This document shows, in pieces, positions 3,091 through 59,825 of a stretch of DNA of 64,000 nucleotides (positions are counted from its first letter, which is position 1; each line of letters begins with the position of its first letter). Below the pieces are notes generated by a model. It was not told where the DNA came from. It made no database searches and saw only the letters and a list, made by a program, of their open reading frames with translations. The DNA lies in contig CAKOOM010000001.1 of NCBI GenBank assembly GCA_934098395.1, positions 421,493 through 485,492 on the forward strand. Direction: 5' to 3'. The translations under genes and the position numbers were made by a program. The DNA comes from an uncultured Bacilli bacterium. Its GTDB lineage: Bacteria > Bacillota_I > Bacilli_A > RF39 > UBA660.

Positions 3091-3139
3091 CTTATTCCTC
3101 CTCTTTGTTAAATTATAGCATAAAAAAACAACTTTTTTT

Positions 3140-3161: not shown

Positions 3162-3183
3162 GGGGTTAGTTAGGAGGGATAAG

Positions 3184-3417
3184 ATGCAAAATGCTATAGG
3201 AAAAGAATTGAAAATTATTAGAATAAGAAATAATTTAAGACTTGAAGATGTAGCTGATGATTTAGATATTAATCGAGAAACACTTAGAAGATATGAAAAT
3301 AATTCAAATGGATTATCGGTTGAAAGACTTGAAGAATTATTAAACTTTTATAAAGTAGATAAATCAATTTTTTTTGAAAACGTATGTGCAAATAAGCATG
3401 GTAAAAAAGAAAAATAG
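3184..3417 (+). CDS. XRE-family HTH protein (Cro-like), divergent from the cI-like pseudogene
   Basis: ATG 3184 lies 5 nt after AGGAGGG (3172-3178). MQNAIGKELKIIRIRNNLRLEDVADDLDINRETLRRYENN is a classic HTH_3 pattern. The track ORF starts earlier at a TTG (3148). Confidence 0.75.
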   Translation: MQNAIGKELKIIRIRNNLRLEDVADDLDINRETLRRYENNSNGLSVERLEELLNFYKVDKSIFFENVCANKHGKKEK

Positions 3418-3542
3418 GAAATAGAAATGTATGACGGCAAATATGAAAAAATATTGCTAATACTTTTATCAATACAATTAGTACTTGCAATATTTATAAT
3501 AATAGGAAGTATAGTAGCAATGATTTTAAAATTTAAAGGACT

Positions 3543-15200: not shown

Positions 15201-17515
15201 GTGCTGTTAGCAGTAGTAAGCCTAAAAATAATTCTAGTTATGCAGGAGTATCTACGAGTACTTCTAGTATGACAGCTAGTTCACTAACTATTAGTAGGAA
15301 TCAAACGTATTATGCTTATTATAGTGCTACAATTTCAAATAAATATTATAAGGGAACTAACAATAGTAATGATTATGATCATCAAACTGATTGGGGAACT
15401 AGGAGTCTATATAAAAATGTATTTTTCACTAGTGGAAGTGCTTTAAGTTATGTTATTAGTGATAGCAAAACTGGTACAACAAATTTATCACATGGTACCG
15501 GTATGGGGGGAGCGGCATTTAAAGGATTTTCTAGTGATAAATTAAATTACATGACAATGGGAACTGCGGCTGAGTCAACAAATGCGGTTTTATATTCAGT
15601 TTATAATATTTGGTATAATGCTAGTAAATCGGCTTATTATAATAGTTTATCAACAGCAGTACAAGGTGCTACAGCAGGTAATACTTTAACACTTAATGCA
15701 TCTTATTTAGAGGATTATGAGAAAACAGTTATAAATAAGAAGATATATCTAGTTATATCAAGTGGAAAAACAGTTGAATTTAGTAATAATTTGGGTGATA
15801 TTCCAATTGCGATTAGAGACAGTGGCGGTACCATTACAGCTGGAGATTTATATTTATCTGGTACTGGTACACTTAAATCCAATAATAAAAGAACAATTTA
15901 TAATTATGGGGGAATATTACAGTGTGAGAGTGTAAATTTTACTGGTTCGGCAATACATATTTCTTCGATTAGTGGTACGGTATATTTAGGTACTAGTAGT
16001 GGAACGAATGGTTGTAGTATTACAAAGACTAGTACTACGAATAATCAATCTGCCGTGGTTGTTGGTGGCGGTACAGCATATATGTATGCAGGGTCAATAG
16101 ATAGTGCCGGTTATGGAATATACGTTCAAGACGCTGGTACTGTTAATGTGTATGGGGGTAGTATTACTTCGACAGATAGTGCAATTTATTCTGCAGCTGG
16201 AAGTTCGGGTTATATTCGTATTGGTAGAGCTTTTTCTGATGATAAAACTTTAAATCCGAATGGAATTTCTGACACAGCAAAAAATAGGTATTCTGGTTTG
16301 GGAAAAACAGCAAACGTTACTAATCCAAAAATTATAGTAGATGGAACTGGTAACCCTGCTATTAATATATATTCAACTTCCTCAAGTGCAAATAATGCTT
16401 ATTTGAGAATAAATCATGGTTATATTGAGGCAAAAAGTACAGTTGTTAGTATTTCTTCGAATGCTAAAAATACGGTTTACATAGATGGTGGAGCATTATA
16501 TTCATCTGGATCTCATGTTTATCATAATCAATCTACAAGTGTTATAACGGCTTTTACAGGTAGCGCTCATTTGTATTCAGACGGATATTCCGCAGTCAAT
16601 TCAGTTAATACACTTAGGATTAATACTAGTCTTAATGATGTATATAATGGAATAGAAGAATCGCGAAGTGATTGTTCTGATTCCGATAGTTCTGGTTTAG
16701 GTAGATATTATGGTACGTATATTATGAGTAAAAGTTCTTATGGAATTTATTCTTCTAATAATTCAGCAATTGGAGTATCTGTTGGAGATAGTACTTATAC
16801 GCAAGGTAGTAAAACTTGTGATAAATTTAAAAATGAGGGTGCTACGATAGCAAGCTATAAAGCTACGTTTATCGGTAATATTAATTTGTATTGGTATGCA
16901 GGATCGTCTTATCATAATTCGGCTGGTTCAACGAGTTATGCTGGTGATAACGTTACAAAGAAAACGGCTGCTACAACGCGATTACATTCAAAAAATAATG
17001 CAATTACTGCTACGACAATTACTCAAAGCTTTAATGGTACAAGTAGAAGCGTTAGTATTGATAGAAGAAGTTATCCATATCAAACTGAATTAACTAAGGC
17101 ATTTGGAAGTGAAGTTACTACTGTTACTAGAACATCTGGTACGTTATATGCTTGGCGTTCTGGTTCATCTTGTACAAGTCTTAGTAGTTGTGGAACTGGT
17201 AGTTGTAATAGTATTGGAGTTATTAAGTCTAATTGGAACATTTATGTTATATCAAATCATTCAACGTATTCAAATTTATATTATGCTTGGGTTCCGATAA
17301 CTTCGGATGCATGGAGCGATAAATATCCTGGTTATCATATTTTAGCAAAAGATGGAAATGCTGCTATATCTACTTGTTCTGGTTTATCAAAACCTATTAC
17401 TTTTAGCAGTTATGTAACAACAACTTATAATAAAAGAACTTATGCAAAAGTAATAATACCGTTAAAAAATGGTAGTACTTGTTATGTAAGCAGCTGTAGC
17501 AATTTACCTAATTAG
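12269..17515 (+). CDS. Giant (1748 aa) cell-surface protein with a TasA/SipW-like signal, Ig-like and MBG-like repeats, a Listeria-Bacteroides-type repeat and a beta-helix-like region
   Basis: Uninterrupted 5.2-kb ORF with SD GAGAGGTG. The N-terminal TM ends ..AIGTYAYWSYES. DTTPPVCTF begins an Ig-like module. TYTGSAIT...DYTISYSNNINAGTATLTITGKGNFTG repeats are present. ELFVGWYTETSYTN..LFAKW is Flg_new-like. A Gly/Ser/Thr-rich periodic region runs from about 15.7 to 16.7 kb. There is no C-terminal anchor. Confidence 0.85.
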   Translation: MKKYVKYLIITLVVGIIIAIGTYAYWSYESNNKKNISIRTSRELSNYIIYDEGESKFTGELKVGSSYLDGIHTTISIKKTADASNLELMATVNMTVNAIGDNIKNSYGLKWAITKGDSTSTGTLLNQGNFYGKNNDDVIELKTGIEVTTTEEKYTVWIWIDGSENPDPKIVGETLDTSVWTQVDQILDNRFEVTSINSNYQFINASAVNTTKNIVAYAVTNTSSQPSSYTNLTTQEQGNVYNVVDYKVTSTGTYYVWFKDSAGSTVNKSVAVSKIDTTPPVCTFGNFEPSTIKNGETSVVELTCVDEEIDIKSSDITSSSITLNGSSVTLNSNIEKTRITNGFKYKLTVTGTSTDGDTSLSLKAGVVNNKAGLSNSTPSSTPTVKVQNLTSVAIPIQSGTLTYNSTSQTVTWSNYDSSKMTVSGTTSATNAGTYSATFTLKDTTKYKWPDGTSTAKTVSWTINKADLSDAVIDGVEDKTYTGSAITQSPTVYVNILKNYNTCYASCIRNSAEEYPCVIQCSYTAVSGTDYTISYSNNINAGTATLTITGKGNFTGTASTTFTINKASLTVPSQSGTLTYDTLEHSPAWSNYSDSAMTISGTSSATDAGTYNAIFTLKSTTNYKWSDGTTAAKTVSWKIERYDISNLGFDINPSSYTYTGSAITPLPTATGEIFDADGWNVCYSACDHSGDSVACGAACDKEFTYIPVKDTDYTLSYSNNTNVGTATVTITGKGNFNGSTQLPFEIVYKKVTVYQNIFDDFKDYSVSGNNTTISYDAGKNEYTFNNTSTSDPYAEISQKAYLTANTTYTIHADFKTTDGTKITGSSKIFQIFYKTQSGAYSEANSVKLSPSSNTVTFKPTSTGYYYFRFDNDYGNNMIVYNFSIGFTKDTTYGKTYGDLTSGSQIVGSNTELFVGWYTETSYTNKVTSTTMVTNINSHVLFAKWKLYGKFNYWNGSSIASTYSTCELTSGSTCTLSVPSAVSSSKPKNNSSYAGVSTSTSSMTASSLTISRNQTYYAYYSATISNKYYKGTNNSNDYDHQTDWGTRSLYKNVFFTSGSALSYVISDSKTGTTNLSHGTGMGGAAFKGFSSDKLNYMTMGTAAESTNAVLYSVYNIWYNASKSAYYNSLSTAVQGATAGNTLTLNASYLEDYEKTVINKKIYLVISSGKTVEFSNNLGDIPIAIRDSGGTITAGDLYLSGTGTLKSNNKRTIYNYGGILQCESVNFTGSAIHISSISGTVYLGTSSGTNGCSITKTSTTNNQSAVVVGGGTAYMYAGSIDSAGYGIYVQDAGTVNVYGGSITSTDSAIYSAAGSSGYIRIGRAFSDDKTLNPNGISDTAKNRYSGLGKTANVTNPKIIVDGTGNPAINIYSTSSSANNAYLRINHGYIEAKSTVVSISSNAKNTVYIDGGALYSSGSHVYHNQSTSVITAFTGSAHLYSDGYSAVNSVNTLRINTSLNDVYNGIEESRSDCSDSDSSGLGRYYGTYIMSKSSYGIYSSNNSAIGVSVGDSTYTQGSKTCDKFKNEGATIASYKATFIGNINLYWYAGSSYHNSAGSTSYAGDNVTKKTAATTRLHSKNNAITATTITQSFNGTSRSVSIDRRSYPYQTELTKAFGSEVTTVTRTSGTLYAWRSGSSCTSLSSCGTGSCNSIGVIKSNWNIYVISNHSTYSNLYYAWVPITSDAWSDKYPGYHILAKDGNAAISTCSGLSKPITFSSYVTTTYNKRTYAKVIIPLKNGSTCYVSSCSNLPN
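13439..14509 (+). repeat. Tandem intragenic duplication (176 + 181 aa units) inside the giant gene
   Basis: Unit A (13439-13966) and unit B (13967-14509) align end to end: SGTLTY..WSNY..M T(V/I)SGT(T/S)SAT(N/D)AGTY...KTVSW.I... YTGSAIT ... DYT(I/L)SYSNN.N.GTAT.TITGKGNF.G. Confidence 0.8.
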
Positions 17516-20721: not shown

Positions 20722-21651
20722 ATGAAGAGAATATTATTGTTTTTATTTTTATTAATACCATTTAGTGTTTTTGCGGATACGGTTAAATTAACTTGTCCTG
20801 ATGAGATAGCTAGTGGTGAAGAATTTACTTGCTCGATAGAAGGAAATACAAATGGTATAATTATTTCAGTTGATATGAATGCAAGATTTGGAAGTAATTT
20901 AAAGATGATATCGTTTGTTCCTGATGGTAAATGGTCTGGAGACGGAGCTAGTGGATATATTCGATTATATACATATGTTGATGTTAATGAGAGTTTTAAA
21001 ATAGGAACTTTGAAATTAAGAAATGATAGCGGTAGTAATAACAGCGTTATACTTGACGAAATTAAATTTTATTATGATGATGATAGTTTCCTAGAATTAA
21101 ACTCAATAACTAAAAATATTAAGATTAAGAGTACTACCAATAGCAGTAATAGTAACAGTAATAGTAATAAGAGTGATACGAGTAGTGGAAATACAAAAGT
21201 AGATAATAATAGTGATAGTAAAAAAGATACTAAGAGTGATAATACAACAAATAAGAATGAAGATAATAATCAAGATAATGTAGATAGTACTGATAGTGAT
21301 GTTTATGGAAATGCTTATTTAGTAGATATTATAATTGGTAGTTATGATATACCATTTGAAAAAGATGTATATGAGTATGAGTTGGCTATTAAAGACGAGA
21401 GTAAACTTGATATAGAACCAGTTTTAATGGATAGTAGTTCAAAGTATTCAATAACGGGTAATAATAAATTAAAAAATGGGAGTGTTATTGAGATTAAAGT
21501 AACGGCTACGAATGGAGATACAGAGACTTATAAGATAAAAATAATTAAAGAGGAAAAAAGCAGTAATATATATAAAATAGTATTTATTGGAATAATAGGA
21601 ATACTTGTAATAATTAATATTATAAGAGTAGTAAGTAGGAGACGAAAATGA
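20722..21651 (+). CDS. Surface protein with signal peptide, cohesin-like domain, Ser/Asn/Asp linker, cadherin-like beta-sandwich and C-terminal TM anchor
   Basis: Signal MKRILLFLFLLIPFSVFA|D. VKLTCPDEIASGEEFTCSIEG...FKIGTLKLRN fits a cohesin-type pattern. NAYLVDIIIGSYDIPFEKDVYEYELAI...TATNGDTETYKIKIIK fits the cadherin-like pattern. The C-terminus is a TM helix followed by RRRK. Confidence 0.65.
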   Translation: MKRILLFLFLLIPFSVFADTVKLTCPDEIASGEEFTCSIEGNTNGIIISVDMNARFGSNLKMISFVPDGKWSGDGASGYIRLYTYVDVNESFKIGTLKLRNDSGSNNSVILDEIKFYYDDDSFLELNSITKNIKIKSTTNSSNSNSNSNKSDTSSGNTKVDNNSDSKKDTKSDNTTNKNEDNNQDNVDSTDSDVYGNAYLVDIIIGSYDIPFEKDVYEYELAIKDESKLDIEPVLMDSSSKYSITGNNKLKNGSVIEIKVTATNGDTETYKIKIIKEEKSSNIYKIVFIGIIGILVIINIIRVVSRRRK

Positions 21652-23279
21652 AGAAGATAATTGAAATGATTAAGAAGAATTATGTTATAAGTGCTGGTGT
21701 TTTATTATTAATATGTTTATTTGTAGGTGTTACGATATTTATAATAAATAAAGGTACAAGAGCATTAGATGAAGGTGTAACTAATAGTGTGGCTTTACGT
21801 TGCCCTGAGAAAGTAGCAATCGATGGTGAGGCAAAATGTGAAGTTATAGCTAATATAGTTGATAAGACTGTTATGTCAGTAAATGCTAACTATAATCTTC
21901 CTGAGGGAGTAACTGTTAGTGAATTTACAGTGAATACAGAATGTGCTGAAGGGGATTGTTTTGAAGAGTTTGCAAATACAGAGAATGGATTTGCAATGGC
22001 TAATTTGAATGGTATTAATAAAAGTACTTCTTTGGGAACTTTAACTCTTAAATTTAGTACTCCGGTAGTATCTAATAAAACATATGATATTGAATTTGTC
22101 AATGTTGAGTATAGTGTTGAAGCTGGTAGTGGTGAATATGAGATGTTAAGTTTAGAGAATACAAAGGCACAAGTTAGAACATTATCTGATGTTAATACGT
22201 TAGATAGTGTAGAAATAAATGGTACTTTTGATAAAGAATTTAGTAGTGATGTACTTGAATATAAAGTTACAGTTGAAAAAGATGTTGATAAGATTAAAAT
22301 AAATGCAAAAGCAAGTGATGAAAATGCAAAAATATCTGGTGATACTGAAGAAACTAGTTTACATTATGGTACCAATAGTTTAAAGATTATTGTAACAAGT
22401 GAAGACGGTAAGGAAAAAACGTATACATTTAATGTATATAGAAAATATGAATTTAATACAGATAGTTATATTTATAATAAAGATAAAAATGTATTATTTA
22501 CTGGTAGTGTTTATGATAATGATAAAATTATAGCTGGTTTGAAATTAGATGATAGTTTAAATAAAAAGATTAATAATGGTAAATTAGAAGTAATGTATGG
22601 CGAAGAAGTTATTAGTACAGTAGATTTGGCTAACTTTAAATATACAAATACAGTAAGTAATAAGATGCTTTATATTGATAAAGATACAACATATGAGACA
22701 TTAGTTAATAATTTAACTTTGAATAAAGTTAGTATTAAAGTAATTGATAGTAGTAAGCAAGAAGTTAATAGTGGTGTAATTAATGATAGTATGAAGATGG
22801 AAGTATATTACGAAGATACTTTATTAGATACATATACATTTACTGTTAGTTATTTGAAGTTAGATGATAGTTTAAATGTTAATGAAGAAAAGAAATTCTT
22901 TGAAAAACAAACAGCAGGTACTAAAATAGGCGAGTTAAAGAGTAAGATTAGTACTAGTGGAGAAGTTAATTATATTTCTAATGATGGCAATGCAGTAGAA
23001 GATAATGATATTATTAAGACTGGTGATAAAGTTAGTATTAATATAAATGGTACTAAAACTGAATATAAAGTGATAGTATTTGGTGATGTCACTGGTGATG
23101 GCGAAATAAGAAGCAACGATGTTGCAAAAGTTTATAGATTTATAAGAGGAAGAATATCTAGTGATGTGTTTGATGATTTATGTGTATCTGCAGGAGAAGT
23201 TACTGGTGATGGTGAAATAAGAAGCAACGATGTTGCAAAGATTTATAGATTCATAAGAGGAAGAATATCGTCTTTGTAA
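21648..23279 (+). CDS. Membrane-anchored or secreted protein with cohesin-like domain, cadherin-like beta-sandwich and a C-terminal duplicated dockerin
   Basis: ATGA overlap with the upstream stop. LRCPEKVAIDGEAKCEV.. is cohesin-like. LDSVEINGTFDKEFSSDVLEYKVTV...SEDGKEKTYTFNVYR is cadherin-like. The C-terminus carries GDVTGDGEIRSNDVAKVYRFIRGRIS twice (23091-23160 and 23202-23271), which is the dockerin EF-hand-like pattern. Confidence 0.75.
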   Translation: MKKIIEMIKKNYVISAGVLLLICLFVGVTIFIINKGTRALDEGVTNSVALRCPEKVAIDGEAKCEVIANIVDKTVMSVNANYNLPEGVTVSEFTVNTECAEGDCFEEFANTENGFAMANLNGINKSTSLGTLTLKFSTPVVSNKTYDIEFVNVEYSVEAGSGEYEMLSLENTKAQVRTLSDVNTLDSVEINGTFDKEFSSDVLEYKVTVEKDVDKIKINAKASDENAKISGDTEETSLHYGTNSLKIIVTSEDGKEKTYTFNVYRKYEFNTDSYIYNKDKNVLFTGSVYDNDKIIAGLKLDDSLNKKINNGKLEVMYGEEVISTVDLANFKYTNTVSNKMLYIDKDTTYETLVNNLTLNKVSIKVIDSSKQEVNSGVINDSMKMEVYYEDTLLDTYTFTVSYLKLDDSLNVNEEKKFFEKQTAGTKIGELKSKISTSGEVNYISNDGNAVEDNDIIKTGDKVSININGTKTEYKVIVFGDVTGDGEIRSNDVAKVYRFIRGRISSDVFDDLCVSAGEVTGDGEIRSNDVAKIYRFIRGRISSL

Positions 23280-23286
23280 TATTAGA

Positions 23287-23315
23287 TTTACAAAACAAAA
23301 AATAAATGCTATAAT
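23287..23315 (+). promoter_or_regulatory. Promoter for the third cohesin-like gene
   Basis: TTTACA (23287-23292), 17 nt, TGcTATAAT (TATAAT at 23310-23315). Confidence 0.45.
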
Positions 23316-23341
23316 TTATTTATATGATAGTGAGGTATATA

Positions 23342-24517
23342 ATGAAAAGAAAAATATTTATATTGGGTATTATGTTGTTAATTCTTTCTCCGCTTAGAAT
23401 TTATGCGGCTGAACAGGTTAGTATGGTGTGTGATAAGACAACGGCTAAACCTGGAGATCAAATTAGTTGTGACATTAAGCTCAGTACAACAATTGAAGTT
23501 ACTGCTGTTGAAGGTAATATTGCAACAAGTGATAATTTGGAATTTGTTAGTGTAGTTCCTATGAGTGATTTTGTTTTTCAAGGAGGAGCTATTGATGAAA
23601 AAGAAAAAAAAATTACTCTTACGCGTGAAGTTGTAATTAAAGATGAATTTGTTGCTGGTAAAGTTATTTTAAAGGTTAAGAGTGATGCAAAGAGTGGCGA
23701 TGCAACGATTGAATTGACAAATGCAAGCATTGGTAATGATAAGGGTAAAATGTATGATATTACTAGTAATAAAACTACGATTAAGATAGAAGTTCCTGTA
23801 GTTAAGGGACTTAAGAGTCTTAATATTAGTAAGGGTTATATAAAGGATAGTTCTTTCAGTTCTTCAAGAGAAGGTTATACTGTAATTATTGAAGGTAATA
23901 CTTTTGGACTTAGTATGACTGCTAATAATTCTAGTGATAATATAGTTGTTACTGATGGTAAGGGTAATACAATAAATGATGTTAATAATATAAAATTTGA
24001 TCCAAATGATAGTGGATTAATGCTTCTTTATATTGGTGTTGGAAGTGGAGATACGGCATTTAAGTATACACTTTCAGTAAGTAAAGATGTAGATGATGAT
24101 TATCGTGGTTATTTATCAAAACTTGTTATTGGTGGCGTAAATGTTGAACTTACAAGAGGAAAAACAGAATATACAATTTATTTAGATAATATTAGTAGTT
24201 ATGATATATCAGCTTATTTAGAGAATTCAGAAAATTTTATGATTGAAAATGGTGGAATTTCTAAAGGAAATGGTTCATGGGTTAATATAAAGATTGTTCC
24301 TAAGGATCCATCAAGCGGAGCTAAATCAATTACTTATACGATTAATGTGCTAAAGAAAGGTTCTAGTTCTAATGGTACAAATAATAGTAGTAATAATGCT
24401 AGTAAATCTCCACAAACGGGTGATATATCAATGTTCTTTATGGCTTTGATACTTATATCATCACTTGTTGGTAGTTTGTATTTGTATAAGAAAAATTTAG
24501 TTGATTTAAAGAAATAA
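23342..24517 (+). CDS. Sortase-anchored surface protein with cohesin-like domain, two cadherin-like beta-sandwich domains and an SPQTG sorting signal
   Basis: ATG 23342 lies 6 nt after GTGAGG. Signal ..LRIYA|AEQ. MVCDKTTAKPGDQISCDIKL...GDATIELTNASIG is cohesin-like. The C-terminus is SPQTGD, then a hydrophobic stretch (ISMFFMALILISSLVGSLYLY), then KK. Confidence 0.75.
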   Translation: MKRKIFILGIMLLILSPLRIYAAEQVSMVCDKTTAKPGDQISCDIKLSTTIEVTAVEGNIATSDNLEFVSVVPMSDFVFQGGAIDEKEKKITLTREVVIKDEFVAGKVILKVKSDAKSGDATIELTNASIGNDKGKMYDITSNKTTIKIEVPVVKGLKSLNISKGYIKDSSFSSSREGYTVIIEGNTFGLSMTANNSSDNIVVTDGKGNTINDVNNIKFDPNDSGLMLLYIGVGSGDTAFKYTLSVSKDVDDDYRGYLSKLVIGGVNVELTRGKTEYTIYLDNISSYDISAYLENSENFMIENGGISKGNGSWVNIKIVPKDPSSGAKSITYTINVLKKGSSSNGTNNSSNNASKSPQTGDISMFFMALILISSLVGSLYLYKKNLVDLKK

Positions 24518-29513: not shown

Positions 29514-30447
29514 TTTATATTTAATTATAGGGGAAGATGAAAAAATAGTTAATTTTAATTTATATAATATATTAGATAAAATTGATTATGTTGATGATAA
29601 TAAGATTATATATGATCATAGTGTAGATAGTTTAACTAGTGTAATAGATGAAGCTTCGATGATGAGTTTAAATGGGCTTTTAAAAGTTATTATTTTTAAT
29701 AATTTTGATTTGAGTAAGGTAGACAGTAATGAAATAGATTATTTATCTAGATATATTAATAGTAAAAACAAAGATGCTTATATTATACTTGTTGCTAAAA
29801 AAATTGATGGTAGAAAGAAAGAATATAAGATATTTAAAGATAATTTTAATATTATAAATACAGTAGTAGATAATGATAATAAGAGTAAGATACGTGATTA
29901 TATAGATAATTATATAAAGAGTAAGAGATATAAAATAGATAGTGTTAATTTAGATTATTTGGTTAGTAAACTTGGAATAGATATTAATAATATTAATTTA
30001 GAATGTGATAAGTTAATGTTATATAAAAATGATGATAAATATATAGATAGACAAACAATAGATTTATTAATATCTGATAATATAGATAATATTATATATG
30101 AGTTTACTAATGCAATAATAGAAAAAGATAATGATAAGATAGTTAAGATGTATAATGATTTTAAGACAATGAATATTGGTTATGATTATCTTTTAGTATC
30201 AATTGCGAATTATTTTAGGCAATTACTTATTATTAAGATGTTATATAATGATGGTAAGAGTAATATAGAGATATCTAAGGTAATAGGAAAAAAAGAGTTT
30301 TATATAAAAAAAACATTAGAGAGATTATATAATTATACGGAAGATGATTTAAAGAGTAAGATTAGTCAATTAGGAAAGATAGATATAGATTTTAAGAGTG
30401 GTAATAGCAAAATAGACATGCTTTTATTATTTTTAGTAAAGAGTTAA
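29506..30447 (+). CDS. holA: DNA polymerase III delta subunit
   Basis: 313 aa. The N-terminus NLYLIIGEDEKI.. and overall helical domain pattern are typical of Firmicute HolA. The call rests on size and pattern rather than a sharp motif. Confidence 0.7.
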   Translation: MNNLYLIIGEDEKIVNFNLYNILDKIDYVDDNKIIYDHSVDSLTSVIDEASMMSLNGLLKVIIFNNFDLSKVDSNEIDYLSRYINSKNKDAYIILVAKKIDGRKKEYKIFKDNFNIINTVVDNDNKSKIRDYIDNYIKSKRYKIDSVNLDYLVSKLGIDINNINLECDKLMLYKNDDKYIDRQTIDLLISDNIDNIIYEFTNAIIEKDNDKIVKMYNDFKTMNIGYDYLLVSIANYFRQLLIIKMLYNDGKSNIEISKVIGKKEFYIKKTLERLYNYTEDDLKSKISQLGKIDIDFKSGNSKIDMLLLFLVKS

Positions 30448-30467
30448 TTTTATTTAACTCTTTTATT
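30441..30467 (+). terminator. Terminator overlapping the holA stop
   Basis: GAGTTAA/TTAACTC 7-bp stem (30441-30447/30454-30460) followed by TTTTATT. Confidence 0.6.
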
Positions 30468-30494
30468 GTAATATAAATATAAATATGTTAAAAT
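30466..30494 (+). promoter_or_regulatory. Extended -10 promoter of pilin-like gene 1
   Basis: TTGTAA (30466-30471), 17 nt, TGtTAAAAT (-10 at 30489-30494). It is nearly identical to 33700-33728. Confidence 0.55.
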
Positions 30495-30508
30495 TATGGT
30501 AGGGTGAT

Positions 30509-33259
30509 ATGATGAGAAAGTTAAATAGTAGAGGATTTACGTTAACTGAGTTATTAGCTACTTTAGCAGTATTATCATTAGTTAGTACAATAGTGATATA
30601 TGTAGCGATTAATGTTGTTAATTCTGCTAAGGATAAGAGTTATTTAGTAACAAGTAACAATGTAGAAAAGGCTGCAGTTAGCTATTTGGAAGAAAATAAT
30701 GATAAGATTCATTTTGTTAAATATGATGATAATATTGAATATCAATGCGTAACTGTCCAAAATTTAATAGATACGAATTATTTTGATAAAGATGTATTGA
30801 ATTCGAAGATAAGTAAAGATAAGACTATAAGTGATAGTGATTATATTTATATTGAAAGAGATAAAGGAAGTAAGGCTATTAAAAATAGTAAATTAGTTAC
30901 TGATAGTGATAGTGATAGTGAATATAGTACAATATGTGGTAATTATAATTCTAGATTGGATGGAGATATAGAATTTAAGATACCTGGAGGATATGCAAAA
31001 GAAAAGGATGTATTAATTAGGTATTGTTTATACAATGTTACTAATTATAAAGAAATTAAATATTTATATAATTATGTACCTAGTGATAAAAGTAGTTTTA
31101 TTAAAGAATATGATGAAGATAATTGCTTTGTTAAAAATATTAAAATACTTGATAATGGTGAATTAACGGCAGAGGTTAAGGATACGGATATTAAGAAGAG
31201 TACTTCAATAACTGGTATTGATAATACGGCACCAGTTATTAAGATAGAACCAAATGGGGATAATACTTATACGAAGAATAAGACGATAAATATTAATATA
31301 AGTGATGATTTAAGTGGAATAAGTAGTGATAGTACAATAAAATATGGATTTAGTAAATCTAAGAGTGAAGAACCTGGTAGTTATAAAGAGGTTAATGTAA
31401 GTACTGGTAATGTAAAGGTTATAGAGAGTAGTTTAACTGGAGAGTATTACTTATGGGTTAAACCTAGTGTTAAAGATAATATAGGAAATGAGAATAATGG
31501 TACGTTAGTAAGTAATGTATATAAATTTGATAATACAGCACCAAGTATACCTACATATATAGCTAAATATAGAGATGGTAGTGGTAGTTATACATCTGGA
31601 AGTAATGCAAATAAAGAGGTAGTAACTGAGATATCTACGACTGAAGCTGATAGTGGAATAGAAGGAATATATTATTCGAAAGATAAGAATAGTAAGACTA
31701 AATTTAACTTTGGAGTATCAGCGTTAGCACAAAATGGTAGTACATGGAGTGGTACAGAATCATGGGATTTTAAAAACGGAAGAAATGATAGTTATTACTT
31801 TATGGCATGTGATAAGGCTGGAAACTGTTCTGATTGGTCTAGTATATTTAATATAAAATATTTAACTTCAGTATATATAAAATATAATGCTAATGGTGGC
31901 AGTATGGCAAGTAGTCATGGAAGTGAATATGAGGTAAATTCAGATGGAATGATTACTAAGAATGGTAGTATATTAACAACAAAAATTAATTATCAGGGAA
32001 AATTAGGTAGTAATGGTTTGTATAATACTAAGAATTCAAATGCAGTTAATTTAACTAATGGAAGTTATTCAATATTTAGTGGTCGTGAGTGGTGTACTAT
32101 TTCAAATGGTAGTGGAAAATGTTATGATGAGGATGCTCAGTATAGTGCGAGTGATTTTTGTGATATATCAAGTAATGATTGTGAAGTAACTTTATATGCG
32201 AACTGGTTAAGTTATTATTGCTCATATACGAGAAGGAGCTATCCGACTAGATCAGAGGCGGTTAGAGCATGTACAGTGACATCAATTAAGAATGTGGAAA
32301 CTACAACAACGACTACATATAGTTGTCCAGCTGGATATACGTGTAGTGGAGGAACATGTACAAGTACAAGTACTTGTCAAAAGACGGTAGATGGAACGAT
32401 TACAACAAAATATTATTGTTCTCATAATGGTAAATACCAAGATAGTTCTACATGTAGTTATATGAGTGGTGGTTATTATGATGATCATTATGATTTAAAT
32501 TGTGTTAATGGGTCTAACTGTACTTCCAGTTGCCCTAGTGGTAGTACATTGAAGAACGGAAAATGTTATAAATATGATAAAACTTCTTGTGGATCAGGAT
32601 GGAGTGCGACAGCAAATGGATATTGTGCTTATACATGCGGTTATTCACATGGTTTGCAATATTCTCACTGTACTGTTAATTATAAAACTTGTCAAAGTAA
32701 TCCGGCTAACTATTCTTGTACTTCTACTTGTGGAAGTGGTGATGACAGTAATTGTAAATCTGGATTTTATATTAGCGGTAGTAGTCCACATGCAAATTGT
32801 AAAACAGATTGGAAATATTATACTTGTTCTAAGAATGCAACAAAGAGTTGTAATAAAGTATATAAAGCAGGTAGTAAGAGCGATACGAAGACTTATGGTA
32901 GTTGTGCTTCTGGGTATACAGCATCTAGAGGAACTGGTTGTACTACGAAAATTACTAAAGATGGTAAAGAGTATTGTGATACTAGAACATATTGGAATGG
33001 TAGAAGTTGTACGTCTTCTTACTCTGGAGGTTCTACGAATAGAGTGGATATGAAATGTACTAAAACTGGAGAATTAAGATATTACTGTAGTCTTACAGGT
33101 AAATATACGACTTCTAAACCATCTTGTACAAATACAGAAAAAGGAAATTTGATTAGTACAACAACTACATCTTATTCTTGTCCGACAGGATATGATTCTA
33201 CAGGTAATTTGAATCAAAATAGTGTATGTACTAAAACTGTTGTTTATAATGTGTATTAA
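30509..33259 (+). CDS. Giant (916 aa) modular protein with a prepilin-type (class III) N-terminal signal, Ig-like modules, a B-repeat-like module and a Cys-rich C-terminal region
   Basis: MMRKLNSRG|FTLTELLATLAVLSLVSTIVIYVAI matches the G-FTLxE prepilin motif followed by a hydrophobic helix. DNTAPVIKIEPNG.. and DNTAPSIPTY.. begin Ig-like modules. VYIKYNANGGSM...EVTLYANW is an InlB/Listeria-Bacteroides-like repeat. The last roughly 345 aa hold about 32 Cys by hand count. Confidence 0.85.
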   Translation: MMRKLNSRGFTLTELLATLAVLSLVSTIVIYVAINVVNSAKDKSYLVTSNNVEKAAVSYLEENNDKIHFVKYDDNIEYQCVTVQNLIDTNYFDKDVLNSKISKDKTISDSDYIYIERDKGSKAIKNSKLVTDSDSDSEYSTICGNYNSRLDGDIEFKIPGGYAKEKDVLIRYCLYNVTNYKEIKYLYNYVPSDKSSFIKEYDEDNCFVKNIKILDNGELTAEVKDTDIKKSTSITGIDNTAPVIKIEPNGDNTYTKNKTININISDDLSGISSDSTIKYGFSKSKSEEPGSYKEVNVSTGNVKVIESSLTGEYYLWVKPSVKDNIGNENNGTLVSNVYKFDNTAPSIPTYIAKYRDGSGSYTSGSNANKEVVTEISTTEADSGIEGIYYSKDKNSKTKFNFGVSALAQNGSTWSGTESWDFKNGRNDSYYFMACDKAGNCSDWSSIFNIKYLTSVYIKYNANGGSMASSHGSEYEVNSDGMITKNGSILTTKINYQGKLGSNGLYNTKNSNAVNLTNGSYSIFSGREWCTISNGSGKCYDEDAQYSASDFCDISSNDCEVTLYANWLSYYCSYTRRSYPTRSEAVRACTVTSIKNVETTTTTTYSCPAGYTCSGGTCTSTSTCQKTVDGTITTKYYCSHNGKYQDSSTCSYMSGGYYDDHYDLNCVNGSNCTSSCPSGSTLKNGKCYKYDKTSCGSGWSATANGYCAYTCGYSHGLQYSHCTVNYKTCQSNPANYSCTSTCGSGDDSNCKSGFYISGSSPHANCKTDWKYYTCSKNATKSCNKVYKAGSKSDTKTYGSCASGYTASRGTGCTTKITKDGKEYCDTRTYWNGRSCTSSYSGGSTNRVDMKCTKTGELRYYCSLTGKYTTSKPSCTNTEKGNLISTTTTSYSCPTGYDSTGNLNQNSVCTKTVVYNVY

Positions 33260-33268
33260 GGAGGCAAT

Positions 33269-33682
33269 ATGAAGAAAATATTATTATGTTTAATGTTTGT
33301 TTTACTGCTAAGTGGATGTGGTAAAGATGTTAATACCAATAATGAAAAAGTGTTGGAAGATAAAAAAGATATTAATATAACGCAAAAGGAAGATACTGTT
33401 GGTGATACGGGACTTAATGTTAGAATAGATAGTTTTTATTATAAAGATAATAGTTCTACGGTTAATTTAATTGTTAAAAATAATAATGATTATGATGTAT
33501 ATATTGGTGAGTATAGCGTAATGGTTTATGATAAAGACAATAAATTACTTGGAGTATATACATTAAATATGAATACGACTATTAAGAGTGGTGAAGAGAC
33601 TAATCAAATGTTTAGTGCTAATGAAGATTATAGTAATGCTTCAAAGTTTGTATATGTGTTTGATGATACGAAGAGAATGTAA
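33269..33682 (+). CDS. Lipoprotein, FxLYD-like beta-sandwich candidate
   Basis: Lipobox LLLSG|C (MKKILLCLMFVLLLSGCG). LIVKNNNDYDVYIGEYSVMVYDKDNKLLG resembles FxLYD-type domains. SD GGAGG lies 5 nt upstream. Confidence 0.6.
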   Translation: MKKILLCLMFVLLLSGCGKDVNTNNEKVLEDKKDINITQKEDTVGDTGLNVRIDSFYYKDNSSTVNLIVKNNNDYDVYIGEYSVMVYDKDNKLLGVYTLNMNTTIKSGEETNQMFSANEDYSNASKFVYVFDDTKRM

Positions 33683-33699
33683 AAGTACATTCTCTTTTA
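33673..33699 (+). terminator. Terminator overlapping the lipoprotein stop
   Basis: Perfect 9-bp stem GAGAATGTA/TACATTCTC, 4-nt loop, TTTT. Confidence 0.7.
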
Positions 33700-33728
33700 T
33701 TGTAATATAAAAATAAATATGGTAAAAT
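33700..33728 (+). promoter_or_regulatory. Extended -10 promoter of pilin-like gene 2 (duplicate of 30466-30494)
   Basis: TTGTAA (33700-33705), 17 nt, TGgTAAAAT (-10 at 33723-33728). Confidence 0.55.
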
Positions 33729-33745
33729 TATGATGTGGTGATGCG

Positions 33746-36376
33746 ATGAAAAAGTTAGATAATAGAGGTTTTACTTTGGTAGAATTATTAGCTACTTTGG
33801 CAGTGTTATCATTAGTTAGTACAATAGTAATATATGTAGCAATTAATGTTGTTAATTCTGCTAAAGATAAGAGTTATCTAGTAACAATTAATGATGTAGA
33901 GGATGCAGCAGTTAGTTATTTAAGGGAGAATAGTGATAAGGTTCGCTTTGTTAAATACGATGATGATATTGAATATCAATGTATAACTGTTCAAAATTTA
34001 ATAGACACGAATTATTTTGATAAAGATGTATTGAATTCGAAGATAAGCAAAGATAAGACTATACGTAGCAATAATTATATTTATATCGAAAGAGATAGTA
34101 ACAATAAGACTGTTACTAATAGTAAGTTGATTGCTGATAGTAATAGTGACTATAATACTTTATGTGGAAAAGCTAGTTTGGATGGAAATATAGAATTTAT
34201 GATAAGTCCTAATGGTTTTGCACGTGAGAAAAATGTAGATATAAAATATTGTTTATATAACGTATCTGATTATAAAAATGTAGAATATTTTTCTCAATAC
34301 AATGATTTAATATATAACGATGGGAATAGTGACAATACTTTTAGTGATAACTGTTTAATTAGAAAAGTTACAGTAAATGAAAATGGAGATATGATTGCTA
34401 AGATATTGAAAAGGAATACTGATGGCAATAAGGAAGAGGTAAAGTCAGCTATTGCTAAGGTTAGTAGTATTGATAATACAGCACCAGTTATTAAGATAGA
34501 ACCTAATGGGGATAATACTTATACGAAGAGTAAGACAATAAATATTAATATAAGTGATGATTTAAGTGGAGTAAGTAGTGATAGCACAATAAAATATGGA
34601 TTTAGTAAGTCTAAAAATGAAGAACCTGGTAGTTATAAGGAAGTTAAAGTTAATGGTGATATAAAAATTATAGAGAGTAGTTTAACCGGAGAGTATTATT
34701 TATGGATTAAACCTAATGTTAAAGATAATGCAGGGAATGTGAATAATGATACATTGATAAGTGATGTATATAAATTTGATAAGACAGCACCAAGTATACC
34801 TACATATATAGCTAAGTATAGAGATGGTAGTGGTAGATATACATCTGGAAGTACTGCAAATAAAGAAGTAGTGACAGAGATATCTGCGACTGATCCGGAC
34901 AGTGGGGTAGAAGGAATATATTATTCGAAAGATAAAATTAATAAAACTAAATTTAACTTTGGAGTGTCAGCATTAACACAAAATGGTAGTACATGGAGTG
35001 GTACAGAATCATGGGATTTTCGTGATGGAAGAAATGATGGTTATTATTTTATGGCATGTGATAAGGTTGGAAACTGTTCTGACTGGTCTAGTATATTTAA
35101 TATAAAATATAAGACAAATAAGGTATATATAAAATATCACTCTAATGGTGGCAGTATGAGTAATAACAATAGTAATTATACGATTAATTCAACTAGTAAG
35201 TTAATTGAGTATAATGGTAATAGTAAATTTCATAGTGTAAGTTACGGAAATAGTTTAGGTAGCAATGGCTTATATGATGCAAATAATTTAAAGTATATTA
35301 ATTTGATTAGAACTGGATATTCAGTAGTATCGGGTAAAGAATGGTATATTAAGAGTGATGGAAGTGAAAAGTATTACAATCAAACAAAACAATATAAAGC
35401 GAATGATTTTTGTGATGCATCAAATAACGACTGTGAAGTAACATTATATGCAAATTGGAAAATTAATAAATTGTATATAAGATATCATGCAAACGGTGGT
35501 AGTATGGCAACAAATCATGGAGTTAATTATAGTATAAGTAATGATGTAGTTGTTTATAAAAATACAAGTGGTAATTATGAGACTAGATTTCATAGTGTAA
35601 AATATGGTGAAAAGATAGATTTTTATAATACGAATAATTCGAGTTATATTAATTTAGTTAGAACTGGATATTCAATAGTATCAGGTAGCGAGTGGTGTAC
35701 TAAAAATGATGGAAGTGGTACTTGCTATAATCAAGTTAGTGAATATTTGGCAACATATATATGTAGTTCACTAAAAACCGGTAATTGTACGATTGATTTA
35801 TATGCAAATTGGAAGAAAAAAAATACATGTCCGAGTGGATATGTTGAATCATCTACTAAGTATGATTGTGAAAAAGTAACAAATCCAACAAAAAAATATA
35901 CGAAGACTACAACAAAATGTGCTAGTACTGGTAAATATAAATGTAGCACGAGTCCAACTATATCGGATAAACATACTTTTAAATGTTCTTGTCCAGATGG
36001 TACTGATCTTCGTGGTTATTATGGAAATAACGCTAACTGTACGCCAAGTGCATCTGGTCAAAGAGGAAGATATGCAATATGTAGATATTATGAATGTCCA
36101 GAAGGGTACACAAAGTCAGGTAGTAAAACTAGTGCGACATGCTATAAAGCTGGACAAACTTCATGTCCGAGCGGATATACAAAAACTAAAGAATATAAAT
36201 TTAAAGATTCAACATCTACTGTAAGTAGTTGTACTAAGGGAAGTTCATTTACTTGTAATAGTAGTAATTCTGGTAAATCATATGTATCAAACTGTAAGGT
36301 TATAAGTACAACATGTTTGGATGGTAATTATGATTCAAGATATGATAAGTGTTATGCATATGCTAGTTATGAATAA
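33746..36376 (+). CDS. Giant (876 aa) paralogous prepilin-signal modular protein with two B-repeat-like modules and a different Cys-rich C-terminus
   Basis: MKKLDNRG|FTLVELLATLAVLSLVSTIVIYVAI. The N-terminal 120 aa and the central DNTAPVIK...SIFNIKY block are near-identical to gene 1. There are two copies of YI(K/R)YH(S/A)NGGSM...LYANWK. The last roughly 183 aa hold about 16 Cys, with CP(S/E/D)G(Y/T) motifs. Confidence 0.85.
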   Translation: MKKLDNRGFTLVELLATLAVLSLVSTIVIYVAINVVNSAKDKSYLVTINDVEDAAVSYLRENSDKVRFVKYDDDIEYQCITVQNLIDTNYFDKDVLNSKISKDKTIRSNNYIYIERDSNNKTVTNSKLIADSNSDYNTLCGKASLDGNIEFMISPNGFAREKNVDIKYCLYNVSDYKNVEYFSQYNDLIYNDGNSDNTFSDNCLIRKVTVNENGDMIAKILKRNTDGNKEEVKSAIAKVSSIDNTAPVIKIEPNGDNTYTKSKTININISDDLSGVSSDSTIKYGFSKSKNEEPGSYKEVKVNGDIKIIESSLTGEYYLWIKPNVKDNAGNVNNDTLISDVYKFDKTAPSIPTYIAKYRDGSGRYTSGSTANKEVVTEISATDPDSGVEGIYYSKDKINKTKFNFGVSALTQNGSTWSGTESWDFRDGRNDGYYFMACDKVGNCSDWSSIFNIKYKTNKVYIKYHSNGGSMSNNNSNYTINSTSKLIEYNGNSKFHSVSYGNSLGSNGLYDANNLKYINLIRTGYSVVSGKEWYIKSDGSEKYYNQTKQYKANDFCDASNNDCEVTLYANWKINKLYIRYHANGGSMATNHGVNYSISNDVVVYKNTSGNYETRFHSVKYGEKIDFYNTNNSSYINLVRTGYSIVSGSEWCTKNDGSGTCYNQVSEYLATYICSSLKTGNCTIDLYANWKKKNTCPSGYVESSTKYDCEKVTNPTKKYTKTTTKCASTGKYKCSTSPTISDKHTFKCSCPDGTDLRGYYGNNANCTPSASGQRGRYAICRYYECPEGYTKSGSKTSATCYKAGQTSCPSGYTKTKEYKFKDSTSTVSSCTKGSSFTCNSSNSGKSYVSNCKVISTTCLDGNYDSRYDKCYAYASYE

Positions 36377-36489: not shown

Positions 36490-37230
36490 ATGAAATTTTA
36501 TGAGAAATTGATAATATTGAGAAAGAAAGCGTTATTATCACAAGAAGCTTTAGCAGAAAAATTAGATGTAACTAGGCAAACAGTATCTAAATGGGAGCTT
36601 GGGCAAACTAAACCTGATATAGATAAATTAAATGAAATTAGTAAATTGTTTTCAGTTGATATAAATGTTTTAACTAATGATGAGGTGACTTTAGATGATG
36701 AGAAGAAAGAGAATGTTAAGAAGGAAGAGAAAAAGGATAGAACTTATATTCTTTATATAGCGATTGTTATTTTAGTACTTTCAATATCTGTTTTGGTTTA
36801 TAGAGTTGGATTTTCAATAAAAGATAAGTATGACACTTATAAAGAGAATGCTCAAGCGGAGTTAAGAAGGCAACAAGAAGAAGATGACAAAATAAAAAAA
36901 CAACAACAAGAAGAGACGGCTAAGAAAGAGGCTGAAAAAGCGAAGAATAATTTTAATAGAGAACTTGAATTTTATATTGGTTCAGAAATCGGAAATAATG
37001 TAGGTAGTGAACTAGATAGAGTTATAAAGAGTAATAAAACAAGTACAGAACATTTAGTTGAAGTAGTATTTGATGGAGTATCATGTGGATATGATACAGA
37101 AAAAATAAAAAATTTAAAATCTAAATTAAAGAATTTTAAAGATGATGGTACAGGATTTCAATATTATGAAGTATCAGTTGATTATGATGAGAATGGTTAT
37201 ATATATAAGGTAACTATAGAGACAAGGTAG
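36490..37230 (+). CDS. Membrane-tethered XRE-family HTH protein
   Basis: LRKKALLSQEALAEKLDVTRQTVSKWELGQTKPDIDKL HTH, one TM (YILYIAIVILVLSISVLVY), a coiled Lys/Glu-rich stretch and a small C-terminal domain. Confidence 0.7.
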   Translation: MKFYEKLIILRKKALLSQEALAEKLDVTRQTVSKWELGQTKPDIDKLNEISKLFSVDINVLTNDEVTLDDEKKENVKKEEKKDRTYILYIAIVILVLSISVLVYRVGFSIKDKYDTYKENAQAELRRQQEEDDKIKKQQQEETAKKEAEKAKNNFNRELEFYIGSEIGNNVGSELDRVIKSNKTSTEHLVEVVFDGVSCGYDTEKIKNLKSKLKNFKDDGTGFQYYEVSVDYDENGYIYKVTIETR

Positions 37231-37231
37231 G

Positions 37232-37780
37232 GTGATAGGAATGTTAATAAATATATTGTTGGTAATTTTGATTATTATATCTGGAACTATTATTAGTTAT
37301 TATAATAAGTTTGTAAAAAATGGTAATAGGGTTTTGGAAAGAGAGTCACAAATAGATGTTTTAATGAAACAGAGATTTGATTTGATTCCTAATATTGTTG
37401 AATGTGTTAAGGGATATACGAAACATGAATCATCTACGTTAAAGGAACTTACTGAGTTGCGTTCTTCTTATAAAGATAATGGCTTTAGTATTGAAGAAGC
37501 GGAGAAGGCTGATAAAAAATTTAATAATATAATGATGTTATCTGAAGCATATCCAGAACTTAAAGCTAATACACAGTTTTTAAAACTTCATGATAATTTG
37601 AGTGAAATTGAAGATGAGTTAAGTGATGCTAGGACAAGTTATAATTATGCTGTTACAACTTATAATAATTTAGTTGAATCTGTTCCTTCGAATATTATTG
37701 CTAAAATATTTGCTTTTAGTAAGAAGAAATTGTTTGAAATAGAAGATAAAGAAAAAGAAAATAATAAACTTGAATTTTAA
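37232..37780 (+). CDS. LemA family protein
   Basis: N-terminal TM, then YNKFVKNGNRVLERESQIDVLMKQRFDLIPNIVE..ELKANTQFLKLHDNLSEIEDELSDARTSYN, the typical LemA pattern. An ATG at 37241 is an alternative start. Confidence 0.8.
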   Translation: MIGMLINILLVILIIISGTIISYYNKFVKNGNRVLERESQIDVLMKQRFDLIPNIVECVKGYTKHESSTLKELTELRSSYKDNGFSIEEAEKADKKFNNIMMLSEAYPELKANTQFLKLHDNLSEIEDELSDARTSYNYAVTTYNNLVESVPSNIIAKIFAFSKKKLFEIEDKEKENNKLEF

Positions 37781-58771: not shown

Positions 58772-58797
58772 AATCTACACAAAAGTGTAGATTTTTA
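58770..58797. terminator. Bidirectional terminator between the GT2 and sortase genes
   Basis: Perfect 10-bp stem AAATCTACAC/GTGTAGATTT, AAAA loop, flanked by A and T runs. Confidence 0.75.
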
Positions 58798-59748: not shown

Positions 59749-59775
59749 AATTTTGTCAAAAATGGTATATATACT

Positions 59776-59803
59776 TTGAAAAATAAAAAAATTTTGGTAT
59801 AAT
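59776..59803 (+). promoter_or_regulatory. Promoter of the DUF402 gene
   Basis: TTGAAA (59776-59781), 16 nt, TGgTATAAT (-10 at 59798-59803). Confidence 0.5.
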
Positions 59804-59825
59804 ATGTTTAGTTTTAAGGAAGAAG

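Follow-up and report, generated by a model that had tools for sequence, protein, structure and literature searches.

The DNA analysed here, a stretch of 64,000 nucleotides (nt) hereafter called the window, comes from an uncultured member of the Bacilli of the human gut and has a low GC content (about 27%). Between holA and lepA, among housekeeping genes, it carries two tandem genes, ORF A and ORF B, whose products are giant modular prepilins, that is, type IV pilin precursors in which a pilin module at the N-terminus is extended by a long series of other domains. Both open reading frames (ORFs) had been delimited in an initial annotation made from the letters of the DNA, and both are present as described there, with products of the following lengths in amino acids (aa):

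30509-33259, forward strand: ORF A, giant modular prepilin, 916 aa, mature protein about 100 kDa
33746-36376, forward strand: ORF B, giant modular prepilin, 876 aa, mature protein about 97 kDa

The start of ORF A is probably the second ATG, at 30512, as judged by alignment with ORF B. The locus recurs on contigs from Hadza and other gut metagenomes, up to 486 kb in length, and a sister strain (L029) carries it on a 788-kb contig, with a LepA 99.5% identical to that of the window.

Prepilin signal and pilin head

A class III (prepilin) signal had been proposed for both proteins, and the sequence searches bear this out. The leaders (MMRKLNSRG-FTLTE in ORF A and MKKLDNRG-FTLVE in ORF B, the hyphen marking the predicted cleavage site) are basic and end in Gly(-1), followed by Phe(+1), Glu(+5) and then a hydrophobic stretch. 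Moreover, both proteins pass the curated cut-offs of the Pfam family N_methyl PF07963 (24.0 bits for ORF A and 26.8 bits for ORF B, against 21.2) and of the NCBIfam family TIGR02532 (24.9 and 27.1 bits, respectively, against 16.3). In ORF A the signal opens the following module:

30509-30958, forward strand: ORF A pilin module, with predicted cleavage before Phe10, a helix at residues 12-62, a small beta-sheet head, and Cys80 and Cys143

In an alignment of 20 head sequences, Gly(-1), Phe(+1), Thr(+2), Glu(+5) and the pair Cys80/Cys143 are invariant and the leader residues vary. Likewise, the cleavage motif is unchanged in all 25 close variants, in which the adjacent leader residues differ.

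The relationship of this head to known pilins was addressed with a profile covering residues 1-150 and derived from 20 family members, which was searched against 177,635 PDB sequences. It matched 17 of them (E up to 1), all type IV pilins or pseudopilins, including Geobacter PilA-N (6e-7), Streptococcus sanguinis PilE1 (3.6e-4), PilA, MshA, PAK pilin, PpdD and GspG. In the chains that were deposited in mature form, residue 1 aligns at the predicted cleavage site (profile position 10). By this profile comparison, the helix at the N-terminus is a homologue of those in type IV pilins of solved structure.

The fold of the rest of the head is less firmly placed. AlphaFold2 predicts the helix at residues 12-62 and then a small beta-sheet (predicted local distance difference test, pLDDT, 80-90), with four strands packed after the helix. 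A Foldseek comparison of this model with the PDB gave weak immunoglobulin (Ig) matches only, driven by residues 151-235. The initial annotation had suggested a structure prediction of about residues 1-120 as a check for a pilin head; the model shows the helix and a small sheet, and Foldseek matched no pilin. Since the 237-residue N-terminal model returned no pilin from Foldseek, the head fold remains an unconfirmed prediction.

Heads of this kind are common. Used as the query of an exhaustive phmmer search, residues 1-150 matched 286 representatives of 50%-identity clusters at E <=1e-10, a number that rises to 1,315 at E <=1e-3. The best 150 matches all align at their own N-terminus and belong to proteins of 109-1,828 aa (median 703). 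With hundreds of clusters and such a median length among the best 150, the head is, by these similarity searches, a widespread carrier for large cargo, the homologues carrying Flg_new, Big_13 and PF12810 domains. A scan of GTDB genomes with the head-and-stalk alignment added 11 loci with 30-41% identity, the window species not being among them; they lie in metagenome-assembled genomes (MAGs) that bear the labels Bacilli, "Tenericutes", Clostridia/Clostridiales and, once, Muribaculaceae, as well as in Clostridium sp. CAG:914. A protein search with residues 1-65 gave five candidates, consisting of contig-end fragments and one unrelated 94-aa pilin.

The presence of several giant prepilins in one genome is also common, since the MAGs CAMGAM01 and CAKOQC01 have two loci each and the loci L005 and L007 hold tandem pairs. 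These two pairs, from other gut Bacilli, encode proteins of 757 and 1,208 aa (L005, 7705-14092) and of 537 and 1,190 aa (L007, 8339-14026); the mature N-terminal helix is identical within each pair, and a small membrane protein follows the pair. The layout is similar to that of the window.

Stalk, repeats and tails

The anatomy of ORF A was derived from an AlphaFold2 model based on a 45-sequence alignment. Residues 12-62 form one long helix and residues 70-130 a small beta-sheet, after which the model shows three beta-sandwich domains (residues 151-235, 236-345 and 346-452), a repeat module (453-566) and a Cys-rich tail (567-916), which was left unmodelled (pLDDT <50). Over most of residues 40-560 the pLDDT is 82-95, falling to 65-72 between residues 131 and 150, and a Foldseek search with the whole model matched the stalk to strings of Ig/FN3 domains. 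The modules of both genes beyond the head are as follows:

30959-31213, forward strand: ORF A Ig-like domain 1 (aa 151-235)
31214-31864, forward strand: ORF A conserved stalk, Ig-like domains 2 and 3 (aa 236-452), 85% aa identity to ORF B
31865-32206, forward strand: ORF A 120-aa repeat, ending LYANW (aa 453-566)
32207-33256, forward strand: ORF A tail, type T1 (350 aa, 32 Cys, pLDDT <50)
35117-35812, forward strand: two tandem 120-aa LYANW repeats of ORF B (aa 458-571 and 572-689)
35813-36373, forward strand: ORF B tail, type T2 (187 aa, 16 Cys)

Ig-like domains 2 and 3 each open with the motif (I/F)DNTAP. The LYANW repeat occurs once in ORF A, twice in ORF B and up to five times in close relatives. 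Of the modules named in the initial annotation, the Ig-like ones are predicted by the model and the Cys-rich tails are evident, but the B-repeat type is reached only below threshold: against Flg_new (PF09479) the LYANW repeats score 11-12 bits (E 0.3-0.4), below the Pfam gathering score of 27. Four homologues (P0030, P0033, P0049 and P0050) pass PF09479 elsewhere in their sequences. The tails T1 and T2 are both rich in Cys, Ser, Thr, Tyr and Gly and share a recurrent C-P-x-G-Y-T motif. Searches of stalk and tails against Pfam, NCBIfam and PDB sequences gave nothing significant.

An LPXTG motif is missing from both proteins, and so is a hydrophobic stretch at the C-terminus that could serve as anchor. 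Sortase anchoring of the giant pilins was therefore rejected for want of the LPXTG motif, although a sortase gene does occur in the window:

58795-59913, reverse strand: sortase gene

The gene between ORF A and ORF B follows the T1 tail rather closely, starting 9 nt past the ORF A stop with its own AAGGAGG ribosome-binding site:

33269-33682, forward strand: 137-aa lipoprotein, with a weak FxLYD-like domain match

This lipoprotein gene accompanies the T1 tail in the window, in L029 (9524-9937) and in a third locus, L006 (13615-14013). The last belongs to another organism, in which the lipoprotein sits behind a non-pilin carrier, P0028, whose tail is 50% and whose lipoprotein is 54% identical. 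The T2 tails of the window and of L029 are without a downstream lipoprotein neighbour.

Such an arrangement could be explained if the giant proteins were polymorphic contact-dependent effectors, the lipoprotein downstream of T1 being a cognate immunity or partner protein. A constant N-terminus with recombining C-terminal tips does resemble polymorphic toxin loci, and the lipoprotein follows T1 not only in the window and L029 but also behind the unrelated carrier P0028. Nevertheless, a toxin or enzyme domain was detected in none of the tails, whose richness in Cys, Ser, Thr and Tyr looks adhesin-like; furthermore, T2 lacks the downstream partner gene in both strains, and the lipoprotein itself offers only a weak FxLYD-like match. 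A role as effectors is thus regarded as very unlikely.

Similarity between ORF A and ORF B

The two genes align in blastn as a single block, 30458-32206 against 33692-35458, with 78% identity over 1,794 nt, and their products are 68% identical in BLASTP over aa 1-566 of ORF A and 1-571 of ORF B. The homology is therefore continuous for about 570 aa and does not consist of two islands. Within it, the mosaic described in the initial annotation, with two blocks of high identity and a lower stretch between them, is reproduced by the identity profile, in which the conserved blocks exceed the rest. In 60-nt segments identity is 85-93% at 30560-30859, 48-57% at 31037-31243 and 80-97% at 31244-31900; past 31900 it falls to 50-62%, with a spike of 83% at 32138-32197, and then to background.

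Several details of that description need correction. The first 120 or so codons, called almost identical, are about 85% identical at the nucleotide level, with a synonymous divergence (dS) of about 0.5. The segment between the blocks, called unrelated, is diverged yet homologous: this hypervariable proximal segment, which comprises the end of the head (aa 119-150) and Ig-like domain 1, keeps 47% aa identity to ORF B, with a nonsynonymous divergence (dN) of 0.38. As for the C-terminal third, the tails are indeed without significant composition-corrected similarity (BLASTP, E 0.37), but residues 466-566 are homologous.

Along the alignment, dS is 0.50 for residues 1-35, 0.54 for 36-118, 0.69 for 119-244, 0.31 for 245-465 and 0.97 for 466-560, and dN is about 0.07-0.09 in head and stalk but reaches 0.37-0.50 in the repeat and in the proximal Ig segment. 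The conserved head and stalk are under purifying selection (dN/dS about 0.1-0.25), the N-terminal block having a dN of 0.065 against a dS of 0.50. A recent duplication or conversion in the window was rejected on account of the dS values of 0.3-1.0.

Promoter-hairpin cassette

A hairpin and a promoter-like site precede each of the two genes:

30438-30463, forward strand: hairpin with a 10-bp stem, spanning the holA stop codon and followed by TTTTATTG (-11 kcal/mol, z -3.55)
30466-30494, forward strand: promoter-like TTGTAA-17-TAAAAT with a TG extended -10, upstream of ORF A
33670-33697, forward strand: terminator-like hairpin with a 12-bp stem, spanning the lipoprotein stop codon and followed by TTTATTG (-15.7 kcal/mol, z -5.6)
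33700-33728, forward strand: promoter-like TTGTAA-17-TAAAAT with a TG extended -10, upstream of ORF B

Both hairpins have a T-rich run on their 3' side. The first is also terminator-like, and was not called by a simple terminator scan because its stem is AT-rich; its 3' arm forms the left edge of the duplicated cassette. The duplication of regulatory elements noticed earlier thus holds for both hairpins and both TTGTAA-17-TGnTAAAAT sites as features, but what is duplicated is the 3' arm and the promoter, the 5' arms being different.

Gene conversion and module exchange between strains

The comparison of strains gives the clearest view of how the two genes evolve. In L029 the tandem genes are 100% identical over 1,440 nt, made up of 54 nt of upstream and 1,386 nt of coding sequence. 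This tract starts precisely at CTCTTTTATTGTAATATAAA, where the cassette has its left edge, so that the promoter at 30466-30494 falls within it, and it ends at codon 462, at the junction of Ig domain 3 and the repeat, after which dS jumps to 0.78. Its counterparts in the window are:

30458-31897, forward strand: gene A counterpart of the L029 gene-conversion tract
33692-35131, forward strand: gene B counterpart of the L029 gene-conversion tract

A second strain, represented by P0004 and P0011 (each listed with a 62,168-bp contig), has the same pattern. The homogenised tract in L029 means that recombination was recent in at least one strain. Accordingly, the recent duplication or gene conversion invoked in the initial annotation survives as conversion in the species, as seen in L029, but not as a recent event in the window, where dS is 0.31-0.97.

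In addition, the modules recombine with one another. Among the 25 close variants, three tail types (T1, 341-353 aa with 32 Cys; T2, 187-228 aa with 16-22 Cys; T3, 161 aa with 14 Cys) combine freely with the types of proximal segment and with one to five repeats. P0007 joins a B-type head to a T1 tail and P0022 a B-type head to a T3 tail, and three proteins identical over their N-terminal 560 residues carry T3 with five repeats (P0016), T3 with three repeats (P0020) and T2 with two repeats (P0023). The idea of a conserved carrier with swapped distal modules is upheld in this way, head and Ig-like stalk carrying interchangeable tails and repeats. On the strength of these alignments, gene conversion and module swapping are demonstrated for the species.

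Filament machinery and the weighing of the evidence

The most probable interpretation of ORF A and ORF B, favoured with some but by no means full confidence, is that they are modular type IV pilins of giant size, presented at the tip and acting as variable adhesins. Such proteins would need a filament, whose components were sought in the window, its flanks and related lineages.

In the window, the absence of PilB, PilC, PilD and PilM-O that had been pointed out earlier holds on every test applied: tblastn with the PilC and PilD of a relative gave no match, no PilB-type Walker motif is present, and T2SSE, T2SSF and Peptidase_A24 are absent from the Pfam lists of same-species loci (covering most of the window, about 10 kb to its right and about 17 kb to its left). 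The gene of an ordinary prepilin, by contrast with the giant ones only 134 aa long, lies about 8 kb beyond the left edge of the window, with which it shares a 486,385-bp contig:

L033 19765-20169 (equal to L034 10001-10405), reverse strand: 134-aa prepilin gene, between ytxH and ireB-ruvX, alone among housekeeping genes

Its product, a candidate major pilin, begins MNRKG-FTLIELIV and has two Cys; all 14 variants are full length.

In related lineages, with a LepA about 67% identical to that of the window species, giant prepilins and machinery are found side by side. The gene for P0047, a distant homologue of 1,327 aa with N_methyl and Flg_new domains, which was itself a match of the ORF A search, immediately follows pilC (T2SSF) and pilD (Peptidase_A24) in L004, where lepA is adjacent. 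Prepilin genes likewise follow pilD, directly or at a short distance, in L036 (about 1,560 aa), L050 (about 700 aa), L040 (at least 509 aa) and L085 (at least 591 aa), the last two being cut by contig ends, and prepilins of 375-690 aa are encoded a few kb upstream in four other loci. A scan of metagenomes gave 80 PilC loci, 79 of them with PilD adjacent, and pilC-pilD was also seen in the ENA loci L004 and L019-L028. The pair is conserved in uncultured gut and rumen Bacilli (L004, L019-L028, L035-L114), usually after lepA and before ileS. The platform protein is nearer to PilC/GspF than to ComGB (273 vs 148 bits) and has an N-terminal extension of 100-200 aa.

A protein search with the PilC of the relative gave 3,933 matches, the best 120 of which are 57-69% identical; since the LepA of the window species is only 67% identical to that of this relative, its PilC would be expected below these best 120. 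The clusters of nine PilC candidates led to accessions belonging to other MAGs. None of the 80 metagenomic PilC loci resembles the window species, their tetranucleotide correlation being at most 0.79 (0.89-0.95 for same-species loci) and their LepA 64-78% identical.

In favour of modular pilins at the tip stand the prepilin signal above the curated cut-offs, the matches of the head profile to pilins, the confidently predicted stalk, the 134-aa prepilin of the species and the giant prepilins beside pilC-pilD in related lineages, the size of the head family, the selection and recombination seen in the genes, and the tip location of modular pilins in S. sanguinis. Other observations count against a display on pilus tips. 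The window and its flanks (about 10 kb right, about 17 kb left) yielded no PilB, PilC, PilD or PilM-O, and none could be tied to the species. A Walker A motif of the PilB/PilT type (GxTGSGK[ST]) is absent within a distance of 10 kb from every one of the roughly 90 PilC loci that were scanned. The position after lepA, which holds pilC-pilD in related lineages, holds miaB in the window species, where the pair has therefore moved or been lost. Most giant-pilin loci examined are not beside machinery. The T1 tail also occurs on P0028, which has an ordinary signal-anchor N-terminus, so a pilin head is not required to display T1 cargo. Finally, the N-terminal model of 237 aa found only weak Ig matches in Foldseek.

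In a different explanation, the proteins are surface adhesins which a prepilin peptidase processes but which ride on no long pili; for display at the cell surface, the class III signal would act together with the head as membrane anchor or as part of a very short pseudopilus stub. Archaeal sugar-binding proteins with class III signals and the pseudopilins of type II secretion are comparable cases. The scattering of the genes in a housekeeping context far from machinery would suit such anchored proteins, as would the T1 tail on the conventional signal-anchor protein P0028, the common occurrence of multiple giant prepilins per genome, and the lack of a PilB-like ATPase motif near any of the pilC-pilD pairs scanned. 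However, the strict conservation of Glu5 and a head with an invariant Cys pair across hundreds of clusters exceed what a plain anchor needs, and the ordinary 134-aa pilin of the same genome suggests a real filament. Peptidase-processed adhesins without long pili are consequently judged unlikely, while keeping an appreciable share of the probability.

It could also be supposed that the filament machinery has been lost and that the N-termini are now uncleaved signal anchors of ordinary surface proteins. The missing pilC-pilD pair at its conserved post-lepA position and the failure to locate machinery of this species in the window, its flanks or among the PilC loci scanned would agree with relics of this sort. 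Nonetheless, the cleavage motif is invariant in 25/25 close variants in which its leader neighbours vary, the 134-aa pilin has stayed full length in every variant, and the N-terminal block is under purifying selection; relics are accordingly taken to be highly improbable. The preferred interpretation remains that of modular pilins displayed at the tip of a filament.

Neighbouring genes and other features of the window

Between ORF B and lepA, the window carries a gene encoding an HTH_3 domain with a transmembrane segment and a LemA gene (36490-37780). Both are missing in L029 (13108-13621), where lepA is directly 3' of ORF B, which implies a strain-specific insertion or deletion.

Another giant surface protein, of 1,748 aa and with a signal-anchor N-terminus, is encoded at 12269-17515 and followed by a 173-aa membrane protein (the region extending to 18060), which passes the NCBIfam FxLYD domain cut-off (25.6 bits vs 23). 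The two genes make up a second pair of giant surface protein and small FxLYD protein in the window. The 1,748-aa protein was considered as kin of the giant pilins and rejected, having no BLAST similarity to them. Three secreted or surface proteins are encoded at 20722-24517, one of which combines a Cadherin-like domain with two C-terminal GDVTGDGEIRSNDV repeats of dockerin-like type, hinting at surface assembly in the cohesin-dockerin style.

The left end of the window (886-4076, corresponding to L033 7603-11398) groups a Bro-N domain protein, a phage-integrase fragment, small helix-turn-helix genes and a Schlafen-like helicase fragment, a cluster that is probably a decayed mobile element. Throughout the window the GC skew is very strong and tracks the coding strand: it reaches +0.2 to +0.58 in 2-kb intervals with forward-strand genes, and in two regions with reverse-strand genes, 1-4000 and 50-54 kb, it amounts to about -0.1 and about 0.04-0.09, respectively.

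Comparison with known systems

A known parallel to the recombination between pilin gene copies considered here is found in Neisseria, where non-reciprocal recombination between pilE and pilS, with conserved segments as homology arms, yields variant pilins. The giant pilins likewise recombine between copies over conserved homology arms. Unlike the silent cassettes of Neisseria, both giant-pilin copies are complete ORFs with promoter-like sites, and the variable parts are whole domains and tails of a minor-type pilin instead of the head of the major pilin.

A second comparison is offered by CofB of enterotoxigenic Escherichia coli and TcpB of Vibrio cholerae, type IVb minor pilins which are much smaller, about 500 aa. 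They resemble the giant pilins in having a pilin module, a linker, extra beta-rich domains and a tip position (for CofB, PMC8179133). In contrast to the giant pilins, they belong to diderm type IVb systems, are encoded within the pilus operon, and have neither a Cys-rich tail nor conversion between paralogs; CofB, moreover, forms a tip trimer. The PilC/PilY1 tip adhesins of diderms share the very large tip effector and the combination of a constant carrier with variable modules (PMC8179133, PMC9934059). PilY1, however, is not a pilin, is held by a minor-pilin complex and is absent from monoderms, whereas here the carrier is the pilin.

Modular pilins as such have been catalogued: more than 1,200 proteins with 264 architectures were listed by Raynaud et al. 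(2021, PMC8179133), among them N_methyl combined with Listeria-Bacteroides repeats, with Big_13 and with PF12810, the most extreme case having 860 aa. The initial annotation had taken proteins of this size and module content to be an apparently undescribed version; as a kind, they are covered by this survey, with its 860-aa case. In S. sanguinis, modular pilins are located at the pilus tip (PMC8179133; Shahin et al. 2023, PMC9934059). ORF A has the composition that defines the class, an N-terminal pilin module plus residues 151-916 (three Ig-like domains, repeat and Cys-rich tail); placement in a pil locus, a trait of S. sanguinis that is outside the class definition, is not found here. ORF A and ORF B are thus a very large addition to an established class.

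Like S. sanguinis PilB, with its vWA module, and PilC, with its lectin module, the giant pilins fuse a class III signal and a small pilin module to bulky modules in a monoderm; there are also two modular pilins per genome and a predicted display at the tip for adhesion. Unlike them, the giant pilins are about twice the size (97-100 vs about 50 kDa), have a four- or five-domain stalk and a tail of no known family, and are encoded outside any pil locus by genes which each have their own promoter and whose modules are shuffled among strains by gene conversion. What is new here is a carrier head common to hundreds of clusters, the stand-alone, promoter-bearing genes, and the documented cassette-like conversion.

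Proposed mechanism

Each gene would be transcribed from its own sigma-70-like promoter behind the hairpin, and the product would enter the membrane by means of its class III signal. A prepilin peptidase would then cleave after Gly and methylate Phe(+1), which is Phe10 in ORF A and Phe9 in ORF B; (N-methyl)FTLTELLATLAVLSLV would be a peptide expected from such processing. The hydrophobic helix with its Glu5 may dock the protein into a filament of ordinary pilins, for instance the 134-aa prepilin. By analogy with PilB and PilC of S. sanguinis, the giant pilins would sit at the tip of this filament, because a cargo of about 85 kDa cannot pack within the filament body. The three Ig-like domains, of predicted fold, and the one or two 120-aa repeats would together form a stalk presenting the disulfide-rich tail as a putative binding surface.

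Diversification proceeds, as the comparison of strains shows, by homologous recombination between the tandem genes and between strains, with exchange of modules. The promoter cassette and the conserved stalk act as homology arms, and recombination over them either homogenises the carrier or reassorts the proximal Ig domain, the number of repeats and the type of tail.

A broader and distinctly doubtful proposal can be added. According to it, the reduced-genome gut Bacilli would possess a dedicated carrier-pilin family (at least 286 clusters, with cargo up to about 1,800 aa), in which one filament system would serve giant cargoes swapped by conversion at fixed module boundaries, pilC-pilD would never be accompanied by a PilB-type motif within 10 kb, and T1 would travel with a cognate lipoprotein, much as polymorphic effectors do with their partners, the whole being a pilus-tip cassette system through which the host or other bacteria would be recognised in a strain-specific manner.

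Significance

The concept of the modular pilin was already established, and the current view of type IV filaments is not overturned by the giant pilins. If they are borne at the tip, they would be among the largest pilins seen (876-916 aa, against 860 aa in the 2021 survey), with same-head relatives reaching 1,828 aa, and they would show how far the grafting of modules on pilins can go in wall-bearing monoderms. The reassortment of proximal domain, repeat number and tail points to a diversifying pressure, which may come from the host, from phages or from immunity. Since the bacterium is prevalent in the human gut, the giant pilins are candidate strain-specific colonisation factors and may be useful as strain markers.

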